A stretch of 937 nucleotides of DNA from a phage: the sequence record AB841361.1, one strand, 5' to 3'. A program made the position numbers and the translations under genes. How positions within the stretch are numbered: position 1 is the stretch's first letter; each line of letters opens with the position of its first letter. The notes beneath the pieces are model-generated. The model saw nothing but the letters and a program-made list of their open reading frames with translations. It was not told the DNA's origin and did not search any database. Below, in pieces: positions 1 to 937 of this stretch.

Positions 1-456
1 TTACGCCAGCTTGCAGAATTCCTCAACAACCCGGCAAACACAGGAAATATCGTAGACAGTGGAGATAAATACTACATCAAGCCTGATGCGGTATACCTCG
101 GCATCTACGAAGGATTAGTGCTGGCTGGCGTTCATGAAGTGCGTAACTTCTGGCATAGCGTTGTTGAATGCCATGCTGTGTACGACCCCGGATTCCGTGG
201 CGAATATGCACTGCAAGGGCATCGATTATTCTGCAAATGGCTTCTCGAAAACTCACCATTTCTTAACAGCATCACCATGGTTCCTGACACCACCAAATAC
301 GGACGGGCAATTATCCGTTTGCTTGGCGCTACCCGTGTTGGTCACCTTGATGATGCTTATACCAGCAATGGAAAGCCTGTAGGCATCACGATTTATCAGT
401 TACCGCGCTCAAAATACGAGGAGCTAAAGAATGTTAATTTTCCAGATTGCCAATAA
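1..456 (+). CDS. 5'-partial CDS encoding a hypothetical protein (C-terminal 151 aa visible); possibly a P22 gene-14-like virion assembly protein. Ends ...YQLPRSKYEELKNVNFPDCQ*
   Basis: Frame 1 has no stop from base 1 to TAA at 454-456 (151 sense codons), while frames 2 and 3 both hit stops within the first 90 nt (TAG 53-55; TAA 88-90). The translation has mixed, globular-like composition (aromatics, charged residues, Cys/His). The ORF track starts it at GTG 118, but only a weak AAGGA (110-114) sits 3 nt upstream, so an upstream start outside the window is more likely. The functional label is inference from genomic context only. Confidence 0.8.
   Translation, partial: LRQLAEFLNNPANTGNIVDSGDKYYIKPDAVYLGIYEGLVLAGVHEVRNFWHSVVECHAVYDPGFRGEYALQGHRLFCKWLLENSPFLNSITMVPDTTKYGRAIIRLLGATRVGHLDDAYTSNGKPVGITIYQLPRSKYEELKNVNFPDCQ
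418..423 (+). promoter_or_regulatory. Shine-Dalgarno / ribosome-binding site for CDS B, embedded in the 3' end of CDS A
   Basis: GAGGAG is a strong match to the anti-SD complement, with a 7-nt spacer (ctaaaga) to ATG 431. It lies inside the CDS A coding region, where it encodes Glu-Glu, consistent with translational coupling. Confidence 0.7.
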
Positions 457-937
457 GCACCTCAGCAAAGCTGTTTACTGCAAAGGCGGCAGTGATGGCG
501 GTTCAAAAGCCCAGGCACGCGCAACTGAAAAGGGTATCGAATTGCAGCGTGAAATGTGGCAAACGAACATGCAAAACCTAGCACCGTTCACGCCACTCGC
601 TCAACAGTACGTATCAGAGTTGCAGAATCTTTCCTCTCTTCAGGGGCAAGGTCAGGCGCTTAACCAGTATTACAACTCCCAGCAGTATAAAGACCTTGCA
701 GGGCAGGCGCGCTATCAGAGTCTGGCAGCAGCAGAGGCAACTGGTGGATTAGGCTCTACAGCAACAGGAAACCAGTTAGCAGCAATCGCACCTACACTCG
801 GTCAAAACTGGCTGTCAAGTCAGATGAACAACTACAACAATCTGGCAAATATCGGCCTTGGTGCTCTTACAGGTCAGGCAAATGCCGGACAGAACTACGC
901 TAACAACGTCAGCCAATTGTATCAACAGCAGGCGGCA
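431..937 (+). CDS. 3'-partial CDS (169 codons visible) encoding a Gln/Asn/Ala/Gly-rich low-complexity protein; putative phage ejection / DNA-transfer (internal virion) protein, P22 gp7-like. N-terminus MLIFQIANKHLSKAVYCKGGSDGGSKAQARATEKGIELQREMWQ...
   Basis: ATG 431-433 is the first start after the frame-2 stop at TAA 425-427, and GAGGAG (418-423) lies 7 nt upstream. The frame stays open for 169 codons to the window end, ending on a complete codon at 935-937. It is absent from the ORF track only because no stop occurs in the window. The functional call rests on composition and position after CDS A, with no homology search run. Confidence 0.88.
   Translation, partial: MLIFQIANKHLSKAVYCKGGSDGGSKAQARATEKGIELQREMWQTNMQNLAPFTPLAQQYVSELQNLSSLQGQGQALNQYYNSQQYKDLAGQARYQSLAAAEATGGLGSTATGNQLAAIAPTLGQNWLSSQMNNYNNLANIGLGALTGQANAGQNYANNVSQLYQQQAA

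Follow-up and report, generated by a model that had tools for sequence, protein, structure and literature searches.

Homologs of P22 genes 14 and 7 overlap in a late-operon segment related to the temperate coliphage Kapi1

The phage DNA analyzed here, a stretch of 937 nucleotides from record AB841361.1 (referred to below as the window), ends in a long reading frame whose translation is conspicuously rich in glutamine. A first-pass annotation made from the letters alone read this frame as an ejection protein of the gp7/gp20/gp16 group of P22-like podoviruses, preceded by a gene-14-like frame. The question raised by this locus is therefore whether the frame encodes such a protein and, if so, which one, or whether the resemblance goes no further than amino acid composition. 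A second question is how far what is known of ejection in P22 can be carried over to it.

The window carries two reading frames on the + strand, each running off one of its ends. In frame 1, no stop interrupts the sequence from base 1 until a TAA at positions 454–456, and this frame (positions 1–456) represents the 3′ part of a gene-14-like coding sequence, residues 9–159 of a 159-aa protein whose first 8 codons lie outside the window. The second frame (positions 431–937) opens at ATG 431 and contains no stop through base 937, giving 169 codons; ATG 431 is its first possible start, because an in-frame TAA (425–427) lies one codon before it. A Shine-Dalgarno sequence, GAGGAG, can be read on the same strand at positions 418–423, 7 nt before the ATG, and is unchanged in phages Kapi1 and Louie and in a prophage of E. 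coli 22KM0354. The extent originally claimed for the second frame is thus upheld, and the frame has a canonical ribosome-binding site. The two coding sequences overlap by 26 nt (431–456, +), a segment in which the last 8 codons of the gene-14-like protein and the first 8 of the downstream protein's leader are read from one DNA.

Comparison of the downstream frame with that of phage Louie places 44 of 52 differences at the third position of a codon; of the codon changes, 40 are synonymous and 7 nonsynonymous. In the gene-14-like frame, the differences from relatives likewise fall mostly on the third position. This third-position bias in both frames indicates that both genes are under purifying selection. 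On the opposite strand, no open reading frame exceeds 60 aa, and the GC content of the window is 0.47–0.53. No Rfam family matched within the window (E ≤ 1), and scans of the window found no promoter-like or terminator-like sites, which is consistent with a position inside a long late transcript.

The first bases of the window stand apart. Positions 1–7 read TTACGCC (L-R-Q), as compared with CCGGTGA (P-V-K) in Kapi1, Louie, and the E. coli prophage, a mismatch at seven of seven positions that recurs against every relative; bases 8–937 are 91–98% identical to the relatives. None of 42 DUF2824 homologs has LRQ at this spot, and exact-pattern scans of genome, viral, and metagenome contigs for the junction at bases 1–7 returned no match. 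The mismatch could mark a site of recombination within the N-terminal codons of gene 14, or it could be an artifact of the sequence end.

DNA relatives and gene order

The closest DNA to the window lies in phages and in prophages of E. coli. Bases 8–937 are 97.6% identical to the temperate coliphage vB_EcoP_Kapi1, 93.1% identical to phage Louie, and 91.3% identical to vB_EcoP-720R6, with chromosomal prophages of E. coli reaching 98.1%. The Kapi1 genes Kapi1_055 and Kapi1_056 share the start codon and the overlap of the window's two frames and differ from them by a few point differences, bases 1–7 being unmatched. These relatives bear out the proposal that the window is a segment of a phage or prophage late operon.

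In Kapi1, Louie, and the 22KM0354 prophage, the genes follow the order terminase, portal, scaffold, coat, gp4, gp10, tail needle (gp26), DUF2824, gp7, gp20-like, gp16-like, (immI region), and tailspike. This order is identical to that of P22 (genes 2-1-8-5-4-10-26-14-7-20-16-9) and is also that of Sf6 and HK620. The P22 order 14-7-20-16, which the first-pass annotation had cited, is thus found in the window's relatives, as are all of the flanking genes that it had named as a check (portal, scaffold, coat, gp4/gp10/gp26, and tailspike). The window itself holds genes 14 and 7 only, and its flanking genes are known from relatives that are 93–98% identical at the DNA level.

The records of these relatives vary in how they name the two genes. 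In the Kapi1 record (8970–10098), Kapi1_055 and Kapi1_056 are both labeled "hypothetical protein," the label also carried by most RefSeq copies of the gp7 homolog in E. coli prophages. One RefSeq name, "P22-gp17 family phage DNA ejection protein," is presumed to be a typo for gp7.

The prophage of E. coli 22KM0354 has an acyltransferase gene after the tailspike gene and a TnpB-family gene close by, and its end (19125–22466) adjoins ybhB, bioA, and bioB. Kapi1, by comparison, integrates at argW (PMC8787464), so that near-identical late operons are found at different integration sites.

The abundance of such DNA in bacterial chromosomes raises the possibility that the window carries a genuine gene 7 belonging to a defective or cryptic prophage remnant that no longer makes virions. 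Similar DNA is present in 821 of 5426 complete E. coli genomes, the matches cover at least 80% of the window in 408 of 825 matching records and less than 80% in the remaining half or so, and decay is common among prophages. However, both frames are intact in the window, and the great majority of the changes that separate them from relatives are synonymous. A complete late operon is present in the E. coli prophage closest to the window, and Kapi1, the nearest relative to have been characterized, can be induced and forms plaques (PMC8787464). We therefore regard origin from a remnant as unlikely.

Identity of the 431–937 reading frame

The compositional bias of the downstream frame is real. Its 169 residues include 25 Gln (14.8%), 25 Ala, 17 Asn, 17 Gly, 12 Ser, and 9 Tyr, together with 16 charged residues (D/E/K/R, 9.5%) and a single Cys at residue 17; the manual count given in the first-pass annotation (roughly 25 Gln in 169 residues, few charged residues, no Cys after residue 17) proves exact. 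The excess of Gln is significant both against the 2.6% of the neighboring frame (P = 5e-12) and against the background Gln frequency of 4.4% (P ~ 1e-7). The gp7 proteins of P22, Sf6, and HK620 share the Gln bias, at 10–10.4%.

Because the original case was built on composition alone, a bias of this kind (Q/N/A/G) could also have come from a Q/N-rich, low-complexity protein of the host chromosome whose resemblance to ejection proteins is compositional only. Profile and alignment searches speak against this. A Pfam profile search matched the frame to PF25688 (Bacteriophage P22 DNA ejection protein gp7) with 241.8 bits (E = 1e-71; gathering cutoff, 28 bits), aligning residues 18–169 with profile positions 25–176 of 230; P22 gp7, run as a control, scored 428.5 bits. 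The frame also matched PHROG 598, "DNA ejection," with E = 3.8e-74. In BLASTP, it is 72% identical to P22 gp7 (gene 7 reference NC_002371, 9369–10058) over 149 aa, residues 18–166, with E = 2e-71. This match is position-specific and not just compositional, because it is free of gaps under composition-adjusted BLASTP. With all close DNA relatives lying within P22-like prophages or phages, the host-protein explanation is refuted by the Pfam match, the BLASTP match, and the context of the relatives, and we assign it next to no probability.

Likewise, assignment to gp20 or gp16, whose genes lie side by side with gene 7 and whose products have compositional features in common with gp7, is refuted and scarcely credible, given a match that is specific for P22 gene 7 and the gp7 family, a length of 224 aa in the relatives as against 229 for gp7, 471 for gp20, and 609 for gp16 of P22, and a gene order in which gp20 and gp16 come after gene 7 in the relatives. 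The earlier placement in the gp7/gp20/gp16 group is accordingly narrowed to gene 7.

The preferred identification, gp7, is borne out along the length of the protein. Across a whole multiple alignment, the frame is 65% identical to P22 gp7, 71% to the Sf6 protein, and 69% to the HK620 protein, rising to 96% for the Louie protein and 99% for Kapi1_056, and the alignment with P22, Sf6, and HK620 contains about 100 invariant columns, including long invariant blocks. A tblastn search with the frame matched 168 phage records, mainly Salmonella and Escherichia P22-like phages, in which annotated matches are named injection, DNA-transfer, or ejection protein. P22 gp7 belongs to the same family, occupies the same place between gene 14 on one side and genes 20 and 16 on the other, has a similar length (229 versus 224 aa), and shares the Q/N/A/G-rich, charge-poor composition of the window's protein. 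On the strength of these sequence comparisons, the frame is orthologous to P22 gp7.

Since the full-length protein in the relatives has 224 aa, the window lacks the last 55 residues, and the annotated end of Kapi1_056 corresponds to window position 1105. In the relatives, these C-terminal 55 residues form a Gly/Ala-rich hydrophobic tail. The tail is present in Kapi1_056, where it gives a weak Gly-zipper match (E = 0.0019) that falls below the cutoff.

Searches of other collections were less productive. No NCBIfam model scored above noise for either gp7 or the gene-14-like protein, and searches of PDB sequences, run with either protein or with small profiles of its family, found no solved structure. 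Matches of PDB "Cake" designed propellers to the gp14 profile were rejected as sums of repeated 2-bit matches (per-domain E of 1.4e+03), and matches to ricin and PEX14 were rejected at E ~ 1.

Taken together, these results make it almost certain that positions 431–937 hold gene 7 from its 5′ end through three quarters of its length (residues 1–169 of 224), with a gene 14 homolog at positions 1–456, and that both belong to the late operon for virion assembly in a Kapi1-type temperate podovirus of the P22-like group (Lederbergvirus). No observation speaks against this identification.

The gene-14-like protein

The frame at positions 1–456 matches PF11039 (DUF2824) with 210.1 bits (E = 2e-62; cutoff, 25 bits), a family to which P22 gp14 also belongs (179.3 bits, E = 6e-53), and PHROG 651, "head morphogenesis," with E = 2e-68. 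A gene-14-like frame ahead of gene 7 is thus present as the first-pass annotation had proposed, in the form of a strikingly distant allele. Direct comparison gives 22% identity to P22 gp14 (E = 3e-9), with a range of 20–22% across P22, Sf6, and HK620 and a value of 20% for the Sf6 and HK620 gene 14 products. Alignment of both proteins with P22, Sf6, and HK620, the check suggested at the outset, therefore yields very different levels of identity for gp7 (65–71%) and gp14 (20–22%). Sequence comparison thus sets this allele very far apart from P22 gp14.

This allele is common to Kapi1, Louie, and vB_EcoP-720R6 at 96–99% identity (97% for Kapi1_055). Identity is about 73–76% to proteins of Proteus phages and of Sodalis phage phiSG1, and about 35% to those of APSE phages.

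An AlphaFold2 model of the gene-14-like protein, built from a 43-sequence alignment obtained by homolog search, has a mean pLDDT of 86.4 and a pTM of 0.78. When the PDB was searched with this model by Foldseek, 314 chains matched at E ≤ 0.001, and every rank listed was occupied by a GNAT acetyltransferase; the top matches, which include SpeG, PA3270 with CoA bound, and RimL-like proteins, have TM-scores of 0.65–0.73 at sequence identities of 13–19%. The protein is thus predicted to adopt a GNAT acetyltransferase fold. In GNAT enzymes, the loop that binds the pyrophosphate of acetyl-CoA follows strand 4 and carries the motif Q/R-x-x-G-x-G/A. Residues 63–70 of the modeled protein read PGFRGEYA, which, judged by eye, does not have the canonical spacing of this loop. 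In the alignment, P63, R66, and G67 are invariant between both divergent gp14 types.

A GNAT fold for the gp14 family is already published and is not new here: T7 IVP-A and its P22 homolog have been placed in the acetyltransferase family by HHpred, and IVP-A is non-structural, yet required for morphogenesis (PMC4819975). A search of the literature collection used here for the function of P22 gene 14 returned no match beyond this IVP-A analogy (PMC4819975) and the notes in the Sf6 and HK620 records. In the portion available, these notes associate P22 lacking the gene 14 protein with "reduced particle ...". By analogy, the gene-14-like protein may serve the ejection proteins as an assembly factor that is itself non-structural, a counterpart of T7 gp13 (IVP-A).

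The gp7 leader and the ejection pathway

The match of the window's gp7 to its family starts at residue 18, in Pfam and BLASTP alike, leaving an N-terminal leader of 17 residues (positions 431–481, +; MLIFQIANKHLSKAVYC). This leader is the positional counterpart of the 20-aa propeptide of P22 gp7, yet the two cannot be aligned: the leader of P22, Sf6, and HK620 (MLYAF.LGRKLRGEEP...PE) has no sequence relation to residues 1–17 of the window's protein. The window's leader also lacks the "PEKGGK" of P22, Sf6, and HK620, is 6 residues shorter around the OpdA cleavage site of P22, and has a shortened KGGKGG segment, with 17 aa preceding K18-GGSDGG. The same leader type occurs in UPF_BP1, IME10, Dewey, HF4s, and the Proteus phage Brookers, as seen from tblastn matches that begin at residue 1.

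In P22, the host oligopeptidase OpdA removes the N-terminal 20 aa of gp7 to give a mature protein beginning KGGKG, and deletion of the leader lowers the burst by only ~40%, so that it is largely dispensable (PMC8402733). Processing of the N terminus is also described in PMC4992974 and stated in a note of the P22 record. For the protein described here, OpdA processing may not carry over, because the leader is unrelated and lacks the PE|KGGKGG context. That this leader is cleaved at all is an inference.

The junction of the two genes differs from P22 as well. In P22, Sf6, and HK620, genes 14 and 7 are 2 nt apart (P22 coordinates: end of gene 14 at 9366, start of gene 7 at 9369), in contrast to the 26-nt overlap found here. 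Sf6 gp11 and HK620 gp7 are orthologs of the window's gp7 in the same gene order, and they combine the P22-type leader with the P22-type gene 14. The leader type, the overlap, and the divergent gene 14 are instances of the mosaic variation already documented in P22-like phages.

The role of gp7 is known from P22, where gp7, gp20, and gp16 are not needed for particle assembly but are essential for DNA delivery. About 12 copies of gp7 are present per virion, around the portal barrel, and in the absence of gp7 the amount of gp16 is halved and the incorporation of gp20 is almost lost (PMC4992974). Residues 21–154 of gp7 are enough for procapsid binding (PMC8402733). P22 gp7 can be replaced by Sf6 gp7, and a docking of gp7 onto gp10, the conserved tail hub, has been suggested (PMC10461980); gp10 is described as templating gp7*, gp20, and gp16 into a channel of ~50 nm (PMC13622523).

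If the window's gp7 acts in the same way, about 12 copies would enter the procapsid near the portal and help to recruit gp20 and gp16. During infection, gp7 would be expelled via the tail ahead of the DNA, and the tail hub gp10 would then template processed gp7 (gp7*), gp20, and gp16 in turn. The resulting channel, ~50 nm long, would span the cell envelope and provide the route for genome entry, with gp7 forming its tail-proximal, outer-membrane end as a putative functional counterpart of T7 gp14 (IVP-B).

This comparison with T7 has precedents in the literature. P22 gp7 has been classed as a T7 gp14-like outer-membrane component (PMC8954989), and Hardies et al. identified P22 gene 7 as an IVP-B homolog preceded by an IVP-A homolog of the acetyltransferase family, the relationship between P22 gene 7 and T7 gp14 having been found with deeper HMM-HMM comparisons (PMC4819975). 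The roles and the order of T7 gp13 (IVP-A) and gp14 (IVP-B) are analogous to those of the pair in the window, with a small assembly protein followed by an ejected protein of ~200 aa. When a shallow 6-sequence gp7 alignment (Neff 1.2) was compared by hhalign with the single T7 gp14 sequence, the probability was 0.1%, and hhalign of shallow profiles against T7 gp14 and gp13 gave probabilities below 1%. Because of the 0.1% value from the shallow profile, we describe gp7 as working like T7 gp14 and do not count it as a member of that family.

The different leader and the predicted fold of the gene-14-like protein leave room for a departure from the P22 scheme. Here, gp7 may be processed differently or not at all, or the GNAT-fold gp14 may have acetyltransferase activity and modify an ejection protein, gp7 or a different one, while particles assemble, instead of serving as a passive chaperone. 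We consider a departure of either kind possible, if rather improbable.

Gene 7 as found here is a feature already known, a standard part of the operon for virion assembly in a temperate, P22-like phage often found in E. coli. Its importance lies mainly in annotation, as the genes labeled "hypothetical" in Kapi1 and in RefSeq can be confidently named as gene 14 and gene 7 homologs. Beyond this, it bears on two questions that concern the family as a whole: the chemistry of the GNAT-fold gp14/IVP-A proteins, and the processing of the gp7 leader across leader types.
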